DNA from: Promethearchaeota archaeon
GTDB taxonomy: Archaea > Asgardarchaeota > Lokiarchaeia > Sigyniarchaeales > SOKP01
Length of the DNA stretch: 34,320 nt
Direction: 5' to 3'
Assembly (NCBI GenBank): GCA_048939015.1
Contig: JBHLPW010000052.1
Coordinates: 1 to 34,320, forward strand
Of the stretch, positions 14,812 to 31,944 are shown one piece after another. The number at the start of each line of letters is the position of its first letter. Positions within the stretch are counted from its first letter, which is position 1. Position numbers and translations under genes: made by a program. A model generated the notes under the pieces. The model did not search any database. It saw only the letters and a list, made by a program, of their open reading frames with translations, and had not been told where the DNA came from.

Positions 14812-16176
14812 ATGGGTATAAAAGAATTTGGTGAAAAAATTCAAAAAATCTTAGATAAGCAATTTCATAAGATCTTTAATAATTCTCATTTCTTATATAC
14901 TATAATTTTCTTAATATGTTCTCTATTAATTAGTCTATTAAGTCTTATTCCAAATGCAGTTGTTGGAAATTTAATATTGTTTTTAGCAACTGTTTTGGCA
15001 ATTACATTTATATTATTAATGTTTGAAGGATTAATTCCTCAGTTAAACAAATATCTTTTTAATGCTGAAAAAAAATTTGATAAATGGAAATTTGTGGTTT
15101 TTATTATCAATTTTTTCATTAGCTTCTTTATAATTCTGCCTTATTTTATGCTTGCCACCTCTACGAAAATACCCATTCAATTTCTTGGATGGGATGTGAT
15201 TCTTCCAGCACTTTTTATAATTATTTATTTTGGATGGAATCTTGTTCAGATTTTTTTCATAAGAAAAGGTTTTGATAGTGTATCAGATAAACTCAACGAA
15301 AAGGTAATTAGTAAATATGGATCCTCGAGCAAGAAAAACTTTATTTGTCTAATCTTTATGATTTTAGCATTAGTTGTACCATTTTTAATTCTTTTAGGCA
15401 CTTTCTTTGGATTTTTTTCTGAGTTTTCTGCCGGATTTAACAGAACATTATTTATCGCATGTAATGTGATCGTTCTTATACTTTTTATTATTGCGTCATG
15501 GCGTTTTATTACTTTATATCAAAGAAGTAAAAAAATTAATGCGACGAACTCATTTTCTTCAATGTTTTATCTTCTGATTTGGATTTTACTGTGGTTTAGA
15601 GTTCTTAGCTTTTTTAATGCTTTAAAAAATGCTACTCAAGCTACTCAACAGCTAGATATTATTTCAGGGTTGCTTGGTATTTTACTCCTCGTATTTACTT
15701 CAATAATGGTTCTCAGGGGTTTAGGTGAAAAAGTATACGATTCCTTTTTGTTCAATTCTAACAATATGCCCTTTTTCTTATTTGCATTTACAATCTTATA
15801 CATTGAGGGGCAAATTATTATGATTACAGGTGCAGGAACTCTTGCAGGGATTTTCGCTGATAAAAATCAAATTAATCTCATTAATAATTTCTTGATCATA
15901 TTAATAACTATCATCTTCTATTGGTGGTATTCTGAACATTCCTTAGAACGGAAAGGGTACCTTATGAGAAAAAGCTTCTATCCCGTAGAAGTAGCCTCTC
16001 TTTTAACTGATTTTCGGGAATTTTTAGTCAATGATAATATTATAGTTGCTGAGAAAATTGAAGATGAGAAAATTGATGAATTCCTTCGTTCAAAACATAT
16101 AGAGATTCAGAAACCAGAAGAAATCGAAGATGAATCTGAAATTCAAGAGGAAACTGGTTCTGGAAATAATACTTAA
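14812..16176 (+). CDS. Multi-pass membrane protein (about 10 TM) with an acidic C-terminal tail
   Basis: Hydrophobic helices throughout; no recognised family. Confidence 0.85.
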   Translation: MGIKEFGEKIQKILDKQFHKIFNNSHFLYTIIFLICSLLISLLSLIPNAVVGNLILFLATVLAITFILLMFEGLIPQLNKYLFNAEKKFDKWKFVVFIINFFISFFIILPYFMLATSTKIPIQFLGWDVILPALFIIIYFGWNLVQIFFIRKGFDSVSDKLNEKVISKYGSSSKKNFICLIFMILALVVPFLILLGTFFGFFSEFSAGFNRTLFIACNVIVLILFIIASWRFITLYQRSKKINATNSFSSMFYLLIWILLWFRVLSFFNALKNATQATQQLDIISGLLGILLLVFTSIMVLRGLGEKVYDSFLFNSNNMPFFLFAFTILYIEGQIIMITGAGTLAGIFADKNQINLINNFLIILITIIFYWWYSEHSLERKGYLMRKSFYPVEVASLLTDFREFLVNDNIIVAEKIEDEKIDEFLRSKHIEIQKPEEIEDESEIQEETGSGNNT

Positions 16177-16184
16177 ACATTTCT

Positions 16185-16213
16185 AAAAAAAAAAAAGAAA
16201 AAAAGAGAAAAAA
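16185..16213 (-). terminator. Oligo-T terminator downstream of the Ubl gene
   Basis: Long A-tract on the + strand (T-tract on the - strand) between convergent genes. Confidence 0.45.
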
Positions 16214-16272
16214 ACCCGCTTTTTTCTCTTTATAACCCCGTGATAAATACACCAACCATATAAGACTTTTTT

Positions 16273-16524
16273 TTAGCCGCCAGCTTGAGTAGCCATAACC
16301 GTTATTACATCTTTTTTAGGATGAATGCCAATCTTTTGGAATTTTAATTGATCTGGTAGCACTTTCCCTTTAAAAATAAATTGTATGGCTAAAATTGGAT
16401 TTAATTTATATTCCCGCTGTACAGTTTTTTTAATTTCTGCTATTGAATTATTAGGATCTAGTTCTATTAACTTAATAGCTTGATCTGGTGGAACTCCCGT
16501 AAGTCTAAAACGATATTGAGTAAT
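16273..16524 (-). CDS. Ubiquitin-like protein with a C-terminal diglycine (83 aa; not in the ORF track)
   Basis: Hand translation: ITQYRFRLTGVPPDQAIKLIELDPNNSIAEIKKTVQREYKLNPILAIQFIFKGKVLPDQLKFQKIGIHPKKDVITVMATQAGG*. FIFKGKVLPD aligns with ubiquitin LIFAGKQLED. An SD-like GGGTGTGA lies 6 nt before the ATT at 16524. Confidence 0.88.
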   Translation of the reverse strand: MTQYRFRLTGVPPDQAIKLIELDPNNSIAEIKKTVQREYKLNPILAIQFIFKGKVLPDQLKFQKIGIHPKKDVITVMATQAGG

Positions 16525-16682
16525 TGTTAATCACACCCTTTTACAATTTTTTGATTTGATTTAATTACTTATTAATTATCTGACTGATAAATTAAGGATT
16601 ATTGTTTAATATCCCGAACTTCAGTTTATATATTTGTGAAAAATGATACTAATTTAGTTTTAAACTAATTTTAAAAGAACTA

Positions 16683-16880
16683 TTAAAACCGAAAAGGTTC
16701 TGGAGGAGGTCCAGGTCGATCAGGAGGTCCAGGAGGATGAAAAGGACCTGGTTTTGGCATTGGTGGAGAAGGAAATCGTCCTATTCTATGTTCTAAATTC
16801 GAAATTCGCGATTCAATTTTATCTAACCTTTCTTCAATAATTTTAATCTTCTTTAAAATATTTGGCTCTTCTATTGTCAT
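16683..16880 (-). CDS. Small coiled-coil protein with a proline-rich tail (65 aa)
   Basis: ATG at 16880. Heptads IKIIEERLDKIESRISNLEHRI, followed by PSPPMPKPGPFHPPGPPDRPGPPPEPFRF. Confidence 0.7.
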   Translation of the reverse strand: MTIEEPNILKKIKIIEERLDKIESRISNLEHRIGRFPSPPMPKPGPFHPPGPPDRPGPPPEPFRF

Positions 16881-28089: not shown

Positions 28090-30488
28090 GCGATCTATAT
28101 ATGGGTTTTACACTTCCTACTGAAGAGATAGATGTTCTTAAAGATTTAGAACAAAAAATGGGATCAGGTTGGAGTACTGATAATTTTCGAGTCGAAAATA
28201 ATCACGTTACTAGGATTCAAGTAACTAGAGGAACATTGACAGGGCTACCTGAAAATATTGGTAATTGTAAATATCTCAATGCGCTTCTTTTCTACGGTAA
28301 TAAAATTGAGTCTCTCCCAAATTCTGTTGGAAAATTAACAAATTTAGAGTGGCTTTCGGCGCAACAAAATAGACTTTACGAACTCCCTTCTACTTTAGCT
28401 AACTGTACCGCTTTGAAAGAACTTAATTTGGGAGTTAATGAATTAAGAGAATTACCAAGCTGGATTTCCAATCTTAAAAATCTAGAGAAACTGGATCTTC
28501 GCTCTAATAAATTAAGAGAAATACCCGTAGAAATCGAAGCTTGTATAGCATTAACTGACCTTGATTTAAGTGATAATAGACTTACTCAAATTCCAGAAGG
28601 TATCTATAATCTTATTGCTCTCCAAAAATTATCACTCAGACATAATAACGTTGAAAAGATACCACCTGCTATTGGTCAACTTAAATCTCTTACTTCGCTT
28701 GATCTAGGAGTAACTCGAATCTCTCAATTACCAGACTCAATAGGAGAATTAATTTCACTTGAGAGCTTAGAGATTAGTTCAATGGGATTGCAAATTTTAC
28801 CTGACTCAATAGGTAATTTATCAAATCTGCAGACTCTTCTTGTAAAGGAAAATAAACTTGGAACCTTACCAGAAAGCATTGGCAATTTAACATCATTGAA
28901 AGTCTTTCGTTTTGAGAGAAATCAAATCAAACAAATTCCAGAATCGATTGGTAATTTAAGAAATTTGAGTACGATAGATATGGGAAATAATCAAATAGAA
29001 ACTTTGCCTGAATCAATTAGTAATTTAGACAATGTATTTGGATTAGATTTAAGTGGAAATAATATAACAACTTTACCCCAGTCATTTGCACACATGAAAG
29101 GATTAGAGCGTCTCAGTATTCAAGATTGTAAGATCACTAATTTGCCAGAAAACTTTGGTGATCTTGAGAAATTATCTTATCTAGATATTAGAAACACACC
29201 CTTATCAGTCCTTCCTGAATCAATTGGATCATTGAGAAATATGTGGTATTTAGTTGTTTCAAATGGAAAACTAAAAACATTACCTGCAAGTATTGGCGAG
29301 TTAGAGAAATTAAAGGAATTACATTTAGAAGGTAATGAAATTGAAAGGTTACCAACCGAGATAGGTGATTTGAAAAGTTTGGAGAAGTTGATTTTAAGTA
29401 AGAATCAATTAATTAATCTTCCTCCTACTATTTGTAATTTAGACTCTTTAAAGGAACTAAGAGTTGATGAAAATGTATTAGTTTCATTACCTGATTGCCT
29501 TGATAATATGAGATCTCTTGAGAATTTTTATGCGTATAGAAATAGATTAACCTCCCTACCAGAATCTATCGGGCGATGCGAAAGATTAGAATCGTTAAAT
29601 TTAAATGAAAATGATCTGGGTAGTTTACCGAAAAGTTTGGGAAATTCCAAGATTAAATATCTATATTTAAATAAGAATAAATTTGAGAAATTGCCTTATA
29701 TTCTCTGGCCACTTGAAACTCTTGAAACATTTGAGTTTGAAGAAAATCCATTATCAGATGAAGAAAAACAAATAGTCAAGCGTGATCTTGATACACTTCG
29801 TGACTATCTCAAGCAAAGAGCTAGTATGGCAATTTTTATTTCTCATGCTGTAGTTGATTATGAACCTTATCAATTGGCAGCTTTAGGTGAATACTTAGAA
29901 GCTAAACCTGAAGTTTATGATGTGCTTCTCTGCGAGCAAGATCTATCCGGAAATATTGATGAATTTATGGATAACAATGTTCCTATAAGTGATGTCATAT
30001 TCTTCTTAGGTACTAATAAATCTGTATTCAATTCAGTTGATTGTGCTCATGAATTAGAACTTTCTCGTAAGCATGATGTACCTGTCTTATCTATGAAAGG
30101 AACAGATGTTTCTTGGTCAGATATAGTATCTATAGGTCTTAAACAAGATCCTGGGATTGACTACAATCCGCAAGAATTTGAACTGGTTTGTGAGCGGATT
30201 TATAAATATGTTAAACAATTCCATAAGGATCATCCCTTATATAAAATTAAAAAAGTTGAGGAAGAAGAGGAACCCGTTACTATTCCTACAACTATAGATT
30301 GGGACACATTTATAGGGATGCTAGAAGAAATAGTAGAATCTGATAGATTAAGACAATTTCATGAAAGTAAAAAAAATGAACTTGGTGCTCTTATATCACA
30401 ATTAAAAAGTGGTTCCATGAATGATGCAAATTTCATGATGCAATTTTCTCAAATATATTCGCAATGGTTAATGATGCAACAAATTTGA
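28086..30488 (+). CDS. LRR-TIR protein
   Basis: About 22 LRRs of 23 aa, then a TIR domain: IFISHA...SDVIFFLGTNKSVFNSVDCAHELELSRKHDVPVL. ATGA overlap with the upstream gene. Confidence 0.9.
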   Translation: MSDLYMGFTLPTEEIDVLKDLEQKMGSGWSTDNFRVENNHVTRIQVTRGTLTGLPENIGNCKYLNALLFYGNKIESLPNSVGKLTNLEWLSAQQNRLYELPSTLANCTALKELNLGVNELRELPSWISNLKNLEKLDLRSNKLREIPVEIEACIALTDLDLSDNRLTQIPEGIYNLIALQKLSLRHNNVEKIPPAIGQLKSLTSLDLGVTRISQLPDSIGELISLESLEISSMGLQILPDSIGNLSNLQTLLVKENKLGTLPESIGNLTSLKVFRFERNQIKQIPESIGNLRNLSTIDMGNNQIETLPESISNLDNVFGLDLSGNNITTLPQSFAHMKGLERLSIQDCKITNLPENFGDLEKLSYLDIRNTPLSVLPESIGSLRNMWYLVVSNGKLKTLPASIGELEKLKELHLEGNEIERLPTEIGDLKSLEKLILSKNQLINLPPTICNLDSLKELRVDENVLVSLPDCLDNMRSLENFYAYRNRLTSLPESIGRCERLESLNLNENDLGSLPKSLGNSKIKYLYLNKNKFEKLPYILWPLETLETFEFEENPLSDEEKQIVKRDLDTLRDYLKQRASMAIFISHAVVDYEPYQLAALGEYLEAKPEVYDVLLCEQDLSGNIDEFMDNNVPISDVIFFLGTNKSVFNSVDCAHELELSRKHDVPVLSMKGTDVSWSDIVSIGLKQDPGIDYNPQEFELVCERIYKYVKQFHKDHPLYKIKKVEEEEEPVTIPTTIDWDTFIGMLEEIVESDRLRQFHESKKNELGALISQLKSGSMNDANFMMQFSQIYSQWLMMQQI

Positions 30489-30500
30489 AAACGATATAAA

Positions 30501-30523
30501 TTTCTTTTTTTTCCTTTTTTTTG
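30501..30523 (+). terminator. Oligo-T terminator of the LRR-TIR pair
   Basis: TTTCTTTTTTTTCCTTTTTTTTG 13 nt after the stop, and a small hairpin TGAGA-ggtt-TCTCA at 30531-30544. Confidence 0.5.
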
Positions 30524-30627
30524 TATATTCTGAGAGGTTTCTCACAGTTATTAAAGAAATACTTATCAAAATGTTATTATTTCTACTTTAATTCTTCAAT
30601 TTTAAACATAAAATAAAATGAATAAAA

Positions 30628-31176
30628 ATGCCAATTATAATGCCATGTCCAAGAACTGGAAAAAAACCACAAATACATGAGTCTGCGTATATTGCACCAA
30701 GTGCTGTTATCATTGGGGACGTAACAATAGGAGAATTGAGCAATATATGGTTTGGGGCGGTTTTAAGAGGAGATTCAGGACCAATAAAGATAGGAAAAAA
30801 TACAAGCATACAGGAAAATGTTACTATTCATATGGAAATGGGAACCTCAGTTACTATTGGCTCAGATTGCATAATTGGACATCATGCGATGATTCATGGA
30901 CCAATAGAAATAGGTAATGGATGTTTGATTGGTATTGGTAGCAATGTACTTCATAACACCAAAATGAATGATGGTTCTATGATTGCTGCTGGTGCAGTCA
31001 CTACTAATAAAGAAATACCTAGAAGACAGTTATGGGCAGGCATACCAGCTAAATTTTTAAAAGAATTTCCGGAAGAAGAAGAATACATTGGTAAGAAAAC
31101 TTCGGGAGACTATGCGGACAGGGGAAAAAGGTATAAAACTTTTTTTGAAAAAAACCCTAAATATAGTCATTTATAA
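30628..31176 (+). CDS. Gamma-class carbonic anhydrase family protein (YrdA/PaaY-like)
   Basis: Hexapeptide repeats, VLRGD, IQENVTIH, and GHHAMIHG metal ligands. Confidence 0.92.
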   Translation: MPIIMPCPRTGKKPQIHESAYIAPSAVIIGDVTIGELSNIWFGAVLRGDSGPIKIGKNTSIQENVTIHMEMGTSVTIGSDCIIGHHAMIHGPIEIGNGCLIGIGSNVLHNTKMNDGSMIAAGAVTTNKEIPRRQLWAGIPAKFLKEFPEEEEYIGKKTSGDYADRGKRYKTFFEKNPKYSHL

Positions 31177-31200: not shown

Positions 31201-31941
31201 TCATCTTGAACAGAAACATTCTTCACTTTTAACTACTTCTATAACATTGAATCTTAAATCTATAAGGTTAACCATTAATAATTTATTTTCTAAGTTTGGT
31301 AATCCTAACGCAGTTTTTATTACTTCTAAAGCTTCTAATGTTCCCAGAATTCCAGGAGTAACGCCAATTACTGGTAAAGGACCCTCATTTGGAGGTGTAT
31401 CTACTTGTGGGAAGATGCAATGATAGCAAGCAGATATTTTTGGATTGATAGTTATTATTTGACCATAAAAATCCTTAATTCCTGCAATTACACATCGTAA
31501 ATTATTCTCAATAGCTATTCTGTTAACCAAAAATTTAGTTTTAAAATTGTCACTACAATCTACAATGAAATCATATTTTTTTTCCTTAAGATATTGCTTG
31601 ATGGAGTTTTCATCTACATACGCTTTATAAGTAATAATTTTAACTTCTGAATTAAGTTTCATTAATACGTCTTTTGCTGCTTTTACTTTATCTTCTCCTA
31701 TTTGCGTTTCATTATAAAGAATTTGCCTTTGTAAATTTGAAATATCCAAAATATCGTTATCAATTATAGTTAATTCGTTTATTCCCACAGCCGTGAGATA
31801 TAAAGCAAATGGAGAACCTAATCCACCTGCACCAATTTGAAGAACTTTAATTTTTGATAGTATTTCTTGACCTTTTTCTCCAATTTCAGGAGAAATAATT
31901 TGTCTCGAATATCTTTTTCTTTGATTTTCTGTTAGAATAAT
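31201..31941 (-). CDS. MoeB/ThiF/HesA-family E1-like adenylyltransferase
   Basis: The frame is open well upstream of the track start: ILTENQRKRYSRQIISPEIGEKGQEILSKIKVLQIGAGGLGS. Also SNLQRQ, DCSDN, CYHC and C-terminal CFC. Start inferred at the ATT at 31941. Confidence 0.88.
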   Translation of the reverse strand: MILTENQRKRYSRQIISPEIGEKGQEILSKIKVLQIGAGGLGSPFALYLTAVGINELTIIDNDILDISNLQRQILYNETQIGEDKVKAAKDVLMKLNSEVKIITYKAYVDENSIKQYLKEKKYDFIVDCSDNFKTKFLVNRIAIENNLRCVIAGIKDFYGQIITINPKISACYHCIFPQVDTPPNEGPLPVIGVTPGILGTLEALEVIKTALGLPNLENKLLMVNLIDLRFNVIEVVKSEECFCSR

Positions 31942-31944
31942 AAC

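Follow-up and report, generated by a model that had tools for sequence, protein, structure and literature searches.

An intact ubiquitin-family gene with a probable ATT start codon and a Gly-Gly end in Lokiarchaeia

The DNA considered here is a stretch of 34,320 nucleotides from contig JBHLPW010000052.1 of a Promethearchaeota archaeon of the class Lokiarchaeia (GenBank assembly GCA_048939015.1), referred to below in its full length as the window, and the gene of interest is an 83-codon coding sequence for a ubiquitin-like protein (Ubl) on its minus strand at 16276-16524. We hold with high confidence that this locus is an intact, translated ubiquitin-family gene that starts at ATT, and we consider it probable, though with appreciably less assurance, that the gene is a Lokiarchaeia-specific one whose product serves as a covalent modifier exposed at its C-terminal Gly-Gly (GG). 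Discussion of ubiquitin in Asgard archaea has until now centred on systems encoded in operons and on their link to ESCRT. The comparisons below indicate that Loki-type archaea also possess, apart from these, a free-standing protein of the ubiquitin family that is far more conserved and has a GG end.

Reading frame and start codon

The open frame spans 16273-16530, which amounts to 85 codons and a closing stop. It is bounded on its 5′ side by an in-frame TGA at 16531-16533, itself immediately preceded by a GTG at 16534-16536, and the codons that follow the TGA are TTA, ACA, ATT (16522-16524), ACT, CAA and TAT. From this ATT the coding sequence runs to the last Gly codon at 16276-16278, closing with GTT ATG GCT ACT CAA GCT GGC GGC TAA, and since the TAA lies at 16273-16275, the range 16273-16524 reported earlier is the coding sequence together with its stop codon. 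No open reading frame (ORF) of at least 40 aa with an ATG, GTG or TTG start is listed at the locus; the first in-frame canonical start, read off the translation, is apparently the GTG of Val57, from which about 29 aa would be left. The original prediction, a model's reading of the letters, had described a hidden 83-aa ORF without ATG, GTG or TTG near its 5′ end, bounded by this TGA and ending AGG-stop, and both the frame and the codons were confirmed. The translation ends VMATQAGG and contains the two motifs singled out in that prediction, SIAEIKKTV and FIFKGKVLPD. A second copy in the same genome (contig 116:51759-52007) is 82% identical, has an ATG start and ends GGF.

In other genera the Ubl begins M-(T/V/A)-(Q/E)-(Y/F)-R-F-R, from an ATG placed 8-13 nt after GGTG(A). 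In the window, ATT lies 9 nt after a ribosome-binding site, GGGTGTGAT, and GGTGT, TGTGA and GTGAT belong to the 5-mers over-represented 5′ of ATG starts in the window's genome. Over 20 species of the window's genus (g1) the start position holds ATT in 16, ATG in 3 and ATA in 1, and elsewhere ATT was found in both g21 loci and ACG in one g22 locus. Conservation of the start codon, to which the original prediction had looked, thus extends to ATT in most of the genus, and other codons (ATG, ATA, ACG) occupy the same position elsewhere. ATT stands at position 1 in 16/17 cases versus 94/170 over ten internal invariant Ile positions, which vary between ATT, ATA and ATC. This skew suggests a constraint at the level of the codon itself, to be read with the caveat that the species are kin and not independent and that one internal position is equally skewed.

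Species with ATT carry an in-frame TGA, often TGA TAA, 2-3 codons 5′ of the start, with only one or two sense codons (AAA, ACA, TTA) between the upstream stop and the ATT; a canonical start is impossible, and read-through is excluded. Read-through of the TGA from the GTG was ruled out by the TAA that follows the TGA in many congeners. We also considered and ruled out a start-stop mini-ORF formed by GTG-TGA, as the GTG is out of frame in one locus (L078) and GGTGT and TGTGA are general Shine-Dalgarno (SD) variants in this genome. Taken together, comparison of the nucleotide sequences makes the ATT at 16522-16524 the most likely translation start of the Ubl. Because the start is ATT, gene finders miss the Ubl in this genus.

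Family and fold

The 83-residue protein is a ubiquitin-family (PF00240) beta-grasp protein and not one of the ThiS/MoaD/SAMP type, SAMP standing for small archaeal modifier protein. The PF00240 profile matches over positions 11-71 of its 72 with 37.1 bits (E 2.6e-9), where the gathering cut-off is 25.4, and the match stays above the cut-off in a whole-genome scan too. Other Pfam matches, to Rad60-SLD (15 bits) and PRS2_N, fall under their cut-offs, and the ThiS/MoaD (PF02597), Urm1 (PF09138) and Ufm1 (PF03671) models gave no match at E<=10 in Pfam. Placement in the ubiquitin clan rather than with ThiS, MoaD and SAMP, as originally proposed, is therefore upheld. The AlphaFold2 model, generated from 28 homologues, has a mean predicted local distance difference test score (pLDDT) of 92.6 and the beta-beta-alpha-beta-beta order of a beta-grasp (strands 4-10, 19-24, 47-53 and 75-82; helix 30-40), and Foldseek matched it to beta-grasp structures, so that the fold expected from the letters is the one obtained. 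At E<=1e-3 there were at least 470 matches in the PDB, headed by SUMO-3, ubiquitin, Caldiarchaeum ubiquitin, SUMO-1, ISG15 and NEDD8 (template modelling scores 0.65-0.77, 15-29% identity), with a Foldseek probability of 1.00 for ubiquitin, SUMO and ISG15 and 15-22% identity to ubiquitin chains. Among solved chains, those closest in sequence are the UBL domain of Get5/Mdy2, polyubiquitin and the UBL domain of Rad23, the Get5/Mdy2 and Rad23 matches having E-values of 1e-4 with the single sequence and 5e-7 with a profile.

Family membership is clear, yet the protein shows no special closeness to any single eukaryotic modifier. The tail, M-A-T-Q-A-G-G, is without the arginines of ubiquitin and NEDD8 and has neither L-R-L-R-G-G nor L-A-L-R-G-G. 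The particular likeness to ubiquitin and NEDD8 that had been claimed for the motifs did not hold up, the tail being nearer to the Q-x-GG of SUMO and identity being 15-29%. The FKGK of the Ubl aligns with the FAGK of ubiquitin, which contains Lys48, and Lys56 is invariant in the family.

Conservation and distribution

Judged from sequence comparison, the Ubl gene is real, under very strong purifying selection and, in the genomes sampled, confined to the window's Asgard class. Across the 20 congeneric species, mean divergence at synonymous sites (pS) is 0.69, near saturation, and at nonsynonymous sites (pN) 0.015, giving a pN/pS of 0.02, and the proteins differ at only 1-3 positions. In the databases 193 proteins match the Ubl at E<=1e-3, the best 120 of them at 70-98% identity, and with these homologues and this pN/pS the ORF is conserved, as the original prediction had supposed. 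The homologues originate from Lokiarchaeum ossiferum and from metagenome bins of Promethearchaeota/Lokiarchaeota, and several are named "ubiquitin-like protein" by NCBI; in the ESM Atlas the family forms a 216-member cluster labelled "putative Ubiquitin-like domain-containing protein". No NCBIfam model covers the family, and our literature search found no paper describing it. As such, the family is already catalogued though uncharacterised, and only members that start at ATT are overlooked or cut short. The earlier expectation that annotation pipelines would overlook the gene is correct here for callers restricted to ATG, GTG and TTG and incorrect in general. Since the Ubl is invisible to standard gene callers throughout a whole genus, inventories of eukaryotic signature proteins that rely on such annotation will under-count it.

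Of 400 genomes sampled from the phylum and scanned with a profile, 136 have the Ubl, all of them within the window's class; in the 239 genomes of the other classes it was not found. By taxonomic family the counts are 111/134 in f1, 14/14 in f2, 1/1 in f3, 3/4 in f4, 3/3 in f5, 1/2 in f6 and 2/2 in f7. At E<=1e-10 the Ubl is absent from 7 of 53 sampled congeners (about 13%). The gene for a winged-helix protein that lies divergently beside the Ubl was sought in five of these seven and found in none. In the two best of the Ubl-less assemblies, which are 97% and 95% complete (G003 contig 24 and G205 contig 2; loci L065 and L066), synteny is kept up to the gene preceding the Ubl block and then breaks, the Ubl, winged-helix and NadA genes being absent.

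C-terminal tails, fusions and the question of conjugation

We surveyed the C-termini of 120 cluster representatives of the family. Apart from a few that are apparently truncated or point-substituted, these free-form representatives have the GG, and the MATQAGG tail is nearly invariant in free forms, so the GG end that had been noticed in one sequence is conserved across genomes. What follows the GG varies: nothing in at least 20 representatives, one residue (F, N, I, K, Q, Y or others) in at least 45, two to four residues in about 10, and longer tails in others (overall range 0-44 residues), among which a propeptide of about 22 residues recurs. In three clusters (P0241, P0242 and P0244) the Ubl is fused in frame, straight after the GG, to the start of a roadblock/LC7 protein. 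The roadblock part corresponds to a separate single-copy gene in the window's genome (contig 43:97284-97673, minus strand), and in G201 the Ubl-roadblock fusion occupies the orthologous roadblock locus. Where the Ubl domain is embedded in larger proteins (P0246, P0250, P0256, P0259, P0263 and L056), the GG is lost.

Tails that are short, differ between relatives and are not conserved typify precursors cleaved after the GG. Because most relatives carry a tail or a roadblock protein after the invariant GG, the family looks like a processed precursor, and the tails, the fusions and the loss of GG in embedded domains together speak for a precursor in which cleavage frees the GG. The claim that the protein needs no processing accordingly stands for this species and fails for the family, in which most orthologues have residues, a propeptide or a roadblock protein after the GG. 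On these sequence features we lean slightly towards the Ubl being covalently conjugated.

It seems unlikely that the Ubl is instead a non-covalent adaptor, a free protein that would bind the small Pro-rich protein encoded beside it, roadblock/longin regulators, the proteasome or a chaperone and would never be conjugated. Such a role would suit the best PDB sequence matches, the UBL domains of Get5/Mdy2 and Rad23, and many relatives of the Ubl are indeed permanent domains of larger proteins; it is, however, precisely in embedded domains that the GG is lost, while GG and MATQAGG are near-invariant in the free forms. Although no enzyme gene is linked to the Ubl and its kept neighbours encode a regulator and a small protein, not enzymes, the variable tails after GG mark cut precursors, and the C-termini of adaptor UBLs are not so conserved.

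Should the Ubl be conjugated, tryptic diGly enrichment, which had been put forward as a means of detection, would miss it because the last Lys/Arg lies 12 residues before the C-terminus: trypsin would leave DVITVMATQAGG and not diGly.

The Ubl-GG-roadblock fusion genes of other Lokiarchaeia include L088:1083-1745 (minus strand). The embedded domain of L056 (807-1946, plus strand, in G037) is the C-terminal part, without GG, of a 379-aa protein encoded directly after a free Ubl gene, and the N-terminal domain of this protein is 30% identical to the C-terminal domain of a leucine-rich repeat (LRR) protein in G026 (L055:9666-11330, plus strand). The window's own LRR protein was considered as a relative of that N-terminal domain and rejected as unrelated.

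Candidate processing and conjugating enzymes

The genome contains five ThiF-type genes, three UBC-type genes and seven JAB/MPN loci. Peptidases of the C48, C97, OTU and C12 families were sought in it and none was found, the OTU and C12 searches being weak, with control genomes also silent. Three sets of activating (E1) and conjugating (E2) enzymes lie on contigs 5, 17 and 32, of which those on contigs 5 and 32 have a Ubl of their own and that on contig 17 has none. The contig 5 operon combines genes for a 417-aa E1, an E2 and JAB with its own Ubls, which are 110 aa long, have an acidic N-terminal extension and end ...PASTAG, in keeping with the original prediction that the window's Ubl is distinct from the Asgard ubiquitin operons. 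On contig 32 (69608-72000) there is a third Ubl system, with a 90-aa ORF ending IGGF that has no Pfam match; E2-like, E1-like (310 aa) and JAB genes lie on the opposite strand, and longin/roadblock-like genes alongside.

Contig 17 carries an orphan E1 (29378-30958, 527 aa), whose ThiF domain has an insertion of about 180 residues, and, 3 kb from it, a UBC E2 (33836-34354) with the motif HPN...NICL; no Ubl gene lies near the pair. E1s of this type occur only in the window's class and mostly in its order (families f1-f3), with 51-94% identity across the order. A metagenomic protein of 1080 aa, P0267, has an E2 domain of the contig 17 type with a Ubl of the same family as the window's inserted, fused to an Eco57I-like methylase; its E2 domain shares 55% and 43% identity with the contig 17 E2, as compared with 26-32% for the contig 5 E2. 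Because it has no Ubl of its own, because P0267 combines such an E2 with the Ubl and because of the distribution of the E1, the contig 17 pair is, weakly, the best enzyme candidate, and that it serves the Ubl is a tentative suggestion from sequence. Several orthologues of the contig 17 E1 (G224, G024, G018, G231, G017 and G186-G189) contain one or two in-frame TAA/TAG codons in an otherwise intact match. These stops come with about 10 extra codons, and a small insertion, an intron-like element or recoding could account for them.

The pathway that we consider probable would run as follows. The Ubl gene, apparently under its own promoter, would be translated from ATT, with the strong ribosome-binding site GGGTGTGAT 9 nt upstream. 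The divergent winged-helix protein would probably control it through a 38-nt block of upstream DNA. In this species the GG would be exposed directly, and in most relatives a protease, probably of the JAMM/MPN type, would first remove the tail, the propeptide or the roadblock protein. Activation of the Ubl would next fall to an adenylating enzyme of the E1 type from another part of the genome, the contig 17 orphan being the foremost candidate. More speculative, and in our estimate doubtful, is the extension in which Lokiarchaeia would have, beside the operon-encoded pathway, a second, eukaryote-style one with dispersed genes and precursor processing, made up of a hyper-conserved free modifier, an orphan E1 with a large insertion like that on contig 17, a UBC E2, the winged-helix regulator and the Pro-rich partner. 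If true, a prokaryote would here possess a Ubl pathway whose genes are dispersed and whose modifier is processed from a precursor. The analysis supplies a concrete set of possible partners in the orphan E1/E2 pair, the JAMM proteases, the winged-helix protein, the Pro-rich protein and the roadblock protein.

Several observations weigh against a conjugated Ubl served by these enzymes. P0267 is without both the catalytic Cys and the GG, and is known from a single contig. The Ubl and the contig-17-type E1 are never adjacent, their presence does not co-vary within the genus, where their absences look independent, and families f4-f7 have the Ubl while a clear E1 of this type went mostly undetected in them at E<=1e-70. 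The best PDB sequence matches, Get5 and Rad23, are non-conjugated UBL domains. Finally, the Ubl block is dispensable, or at least unassembled, in some species, and hence not essential everywhere.

The genome also has two orphan MoeB/ThiF-type genes, one on contig 83 and one in the window; the latter, 15 kb off, is the nearest E1-like gene to the Ubl, and matches the NCBIfam models for MoeB and the SAMP-activating UbaA, both under their cut-offs. With such an enzyme the Ubl might be a sulfur carrier, or a dual protein like SAMP or Urm1, whose GG would be adenylated and thiocarboxylated for tRNA thiolation or cofactor synthesis, with E2-independent conjugation as a possible side activity. A GG-stop that needs no processing in this species would suit such a carrier, and archaeal SAMPs, as in Haloferax sampylation, work without E2 or E3. 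Nevertheless, we regard this as improbable. The protein matches PF00240 and none of ThiS/MoaD, Urm1 and Ufm1; the window's MoeB gene has no shown linkage to it at that distance; the family occurs in one class only, whereas sulfur-carrier functions are universal; and we know of no roadblock fusions or propeptides among sulfur carriers.

ATT, ATA and ATC starts across the genome

Start codons were examined genome-wide in 3779 long ORFs, at codons with no canonical start for at least 15 codons ahead. SD sequences were scored by 5-mers learned from ATG starts, at a gap of 4-10 nt; with 4-mers the background was too high and no signal was obtained. An SD sequence precedes 52/608 ATT, 35/428 ATA and 10/139 ATC codons against a background of 303/8128, corresponding to an odds ratio of 2.7-3.2 for ATT (p about 1e-8), 2.5 for ATA (p 1e-5) and 2.0 for ATC (p 0.04). 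The sole codon ranked above these three was the rare CGA (4/43, not significant), and with the threshold raised to at least 25 codons ATT, ATA and ATC were the top three, AAA, TAT and AAC showing no enrichment at that threshold. The gap profile of ATT, ATA and ATC peaks at 6-7 nt, the same as for ATG. Conserved N-terminal motifs extend 5′ of any canonical start in proteasome alpha, uL15, small GTPases, Usp proteins and the window's MoeB. Loci where near-cognate starts of this kind can be viewed include contig 43 (proteasome alpha), contig 77 (uL15) and contigs 26, 32 and 12 (small GTPases). Starts at ATT, ATA and ATC thus appear to be a genome-wide habit, of which the predicted initiation of the Ubl would be one case.

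Against this background it is scarcely credible that the gene is decaying or silent in this genus, untranslated owing to the loss of its ATG and a nearby in-frame stop upstream, for although it has no ATG, GTG or TTG start, the upstream GTG is directly followed by TGA and some congeners do not have the gene, the protein is almost invariant over 20 species at saturated synonymous sites (pN/pS 0.02), the ATT, the SD sequence and the upstream block are all conserved, and core genes of the same genome use ATT, ATA and ATC starts.

Comparison with known systems

In Caldiarchaeum subterraneum, ubiquitin is encoded in an operon with E1, E2, RING and an Rpn11-like protein (PMC5654768), and ubiquitin gene clusters are described for Asgard archaea (PMC9192718). 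The window's Ubl resembles operon-encoded archaeal ubiquitin in being of the PF00240 type, with the Caldiarchaeum structures 6fj7, 6fnn and 6fno among its top fold matches, and in having a JAMM protease as its likely processor and E1 and UBC E2 homologues in the genome. It differs from those systems in lying outside any E1/E2/RING/JAB operon, in being far more conserved and in belonging to one Asgard class, and its own genome's operon Ubls, with their length of 110 aa, acidic extension and ...PASTAG end, are unlike it.

Eukaryotic precursors include polyubiquitin with an extra C-terminal residue, the Ub-L40 and Ub-S27a fusions, and the tails of SUMO and NEDD8. The tails and fusion genes of the Ubl look like such precursors: the gene is dispersed, far from candidate enzymes and very highly conserved, and the invariant GG either ends the protein or precedes a single variable residue, a short tail or an unrelated roadblock protein fused in frame. 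In contrast to ubiquitin, the Ubl is only about 20% identical to it, its tail is without Arg72 and Arg74, and its cleavage is predicted from the tails; in contrast to polyubiquitin, no tandem poly-Ubl was seen except the two-domain P0243. SUMO-3 and SUMO-1 are top or near-top fold matches, and the SUMO C-terminus, Q-T-G-G, resembles the Q-x-G-G of the Ubl, a resemblance for which we claim no homology. Unlike SUMO, however, the Ubl matches Rad60-SLD at only 15 bits, has no SUMO-type N-terminal extension and resides in a genome in which no Ulp/SENP (C48) peptidase was found.

The Ubl shares with the SAMPs and UbaA of Haloferax that it is a small archaeal beta-grasp protein with a free GG, encoded apart from an E1, in a genome with MoeB/UbaA-like genes. 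SAMPs are of the MoaD/ThiS type, whereas the Ubl is of the PF00240 type and precursor tails and fusions occur in its family. Get5/Mdy2 and Rad23 carry UBLs that are internal and non-conjugated and have no conserved GG, while the Ubl is free-standing and its GG invariant. As to initiation, AUU starts are known from the bacterial genes infC and pcnB, and NCBI translation table 11 lists ATT, ATC and ATA as initiators. Like those genes the Ubl has a near-cognate codon behind a strong Shine-Dalgarno sequence; unlike them, the habit here extends to dozens of genes, in an archaeon with eukaryote-type initiation factors, and no autoregulation is evident for the Ubl.

Neighbouring genes and upstream DNA

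Downstream of the Ubl lies the convergent gene of a 454-aa membrane protein, and upstream follow a small Pro-rich ORF, a divergent winged-helix gene and then LRR, Fer4 and NadA genes (Table 1). No E1, E2, RING or JAB gene stands beside the Ubl in the window or in 40 other loci sampled, and with the E1/E2 sets on contigs 5, 17 and 32, the earlier remark that no E2, RING or JAB gene is adjacent is borne out. The same prediction had called the gene stand-alone, which is right as regards enzyme genes and wrong in that the Ubl keeps the winged-helix gene and, in several genera, the Pro-rich neighbour across its taxonomic family.

Table 1. Features of the window in and around the Ubl locus
Feature	Positions	Strand	Remarks
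T-rich stretch and short hairpin, probable terminator	16200..16272	-	shared with convergent gene 14812-16176; read directly from sequence
Probable Ubl start codon ATT	16522..16524	-	occupies position of ATG in other genera
Shine-Dalgarno-like GGGTGTGAT	16530..16538	-	genus-conserved; includes in-frame TGA 16531-16533
TATA-like GATAATTAATA	16570..16580	-	45-56 nt 5′ of Ubl start; conserved in g1; putative promoter element
Conserved non-coding block TAAAC(T/C)nAAGT(T)C-N13-AC(G/A)AAAATCCTTAAT	16591..16628	-	25 loci of g1, g21, g22
Small conserved gene, 65 aa	16683..16880	-	ATG 16878-16880, stop 16683-16685; coiled-coil helix and Pro-rich tail ending PPEPFRF
Divergent winged-helix protein, 366 aa	17069..18169	+	conserved partner gene of Ubl
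MoeB/ThiF-type E1-like gene	31201..31944	-	no canonical start, ATT ATT after GAGTGAG; PF00899 212 bits

A winged-helix gene (366-513 aa) adjoins the Ubl in f3 and in every f1 locus sampled, covering nine genera. Its product in the window has weak Pfam matches to HTH_45, ArsR and MarR; in the AlphaFold2 model the first 120 or so residues weakly match MarR, PadR and TFE-alpha winged helices by Foldseek, and the C-terminal domain has no Foldseek match in the PDB. The 38-nt block and the TATA-like element are kept although synonymous sites are saturated. RNAalifold gave no consensus structure for the block, with no pairs, and Rfam no match beyond a chance snoRNA (E 0.31). From its position and conservation, the block is probably promoter-proximal or operator DNA, and it is a candidate operator for the divergent winged-helix protein.

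Between the winged-helix gene and the Ubl, on the strand of the latter, g1, g15, g20, g21 and g22 encode a protein of 52-70 aa, whose orthologues end about 145-170 nt before the Ubl start. These proteins share a helix with PN-L-RIK-IE-RL and a Pro-rich tail ending PPEPF(R/K)(F/I), and neither Pfam nor NCBIfam returned a family match. The small protein might act with the Ubl, as partner or as substrate, or else be a ligand of profilin- or SH3-like type.

In other genera the neighbours change (MutL, restriction-modification methylases, RIO, AsnC, TFIIB-like, ECH and GNAT genes), and a search there for conserved enzyme neighbours found nothing kept across families. Three loci of f5 and f7 (L081, L082 and L083) have an unannotated protein of 280-313 aa near the Ubl, divergent from it in L081, and f5/f7 loci also have a protein of 964-1054 aa with an N-terminal TrmB-type HTH domain. 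A 285-aa neighbour in f7 was considered as a relative of the winged-helix protein and rejected as unrelated. In three f2 genomes the Ubl adjoins Eco57I-type or type ISP-like methylase genes and MutL.

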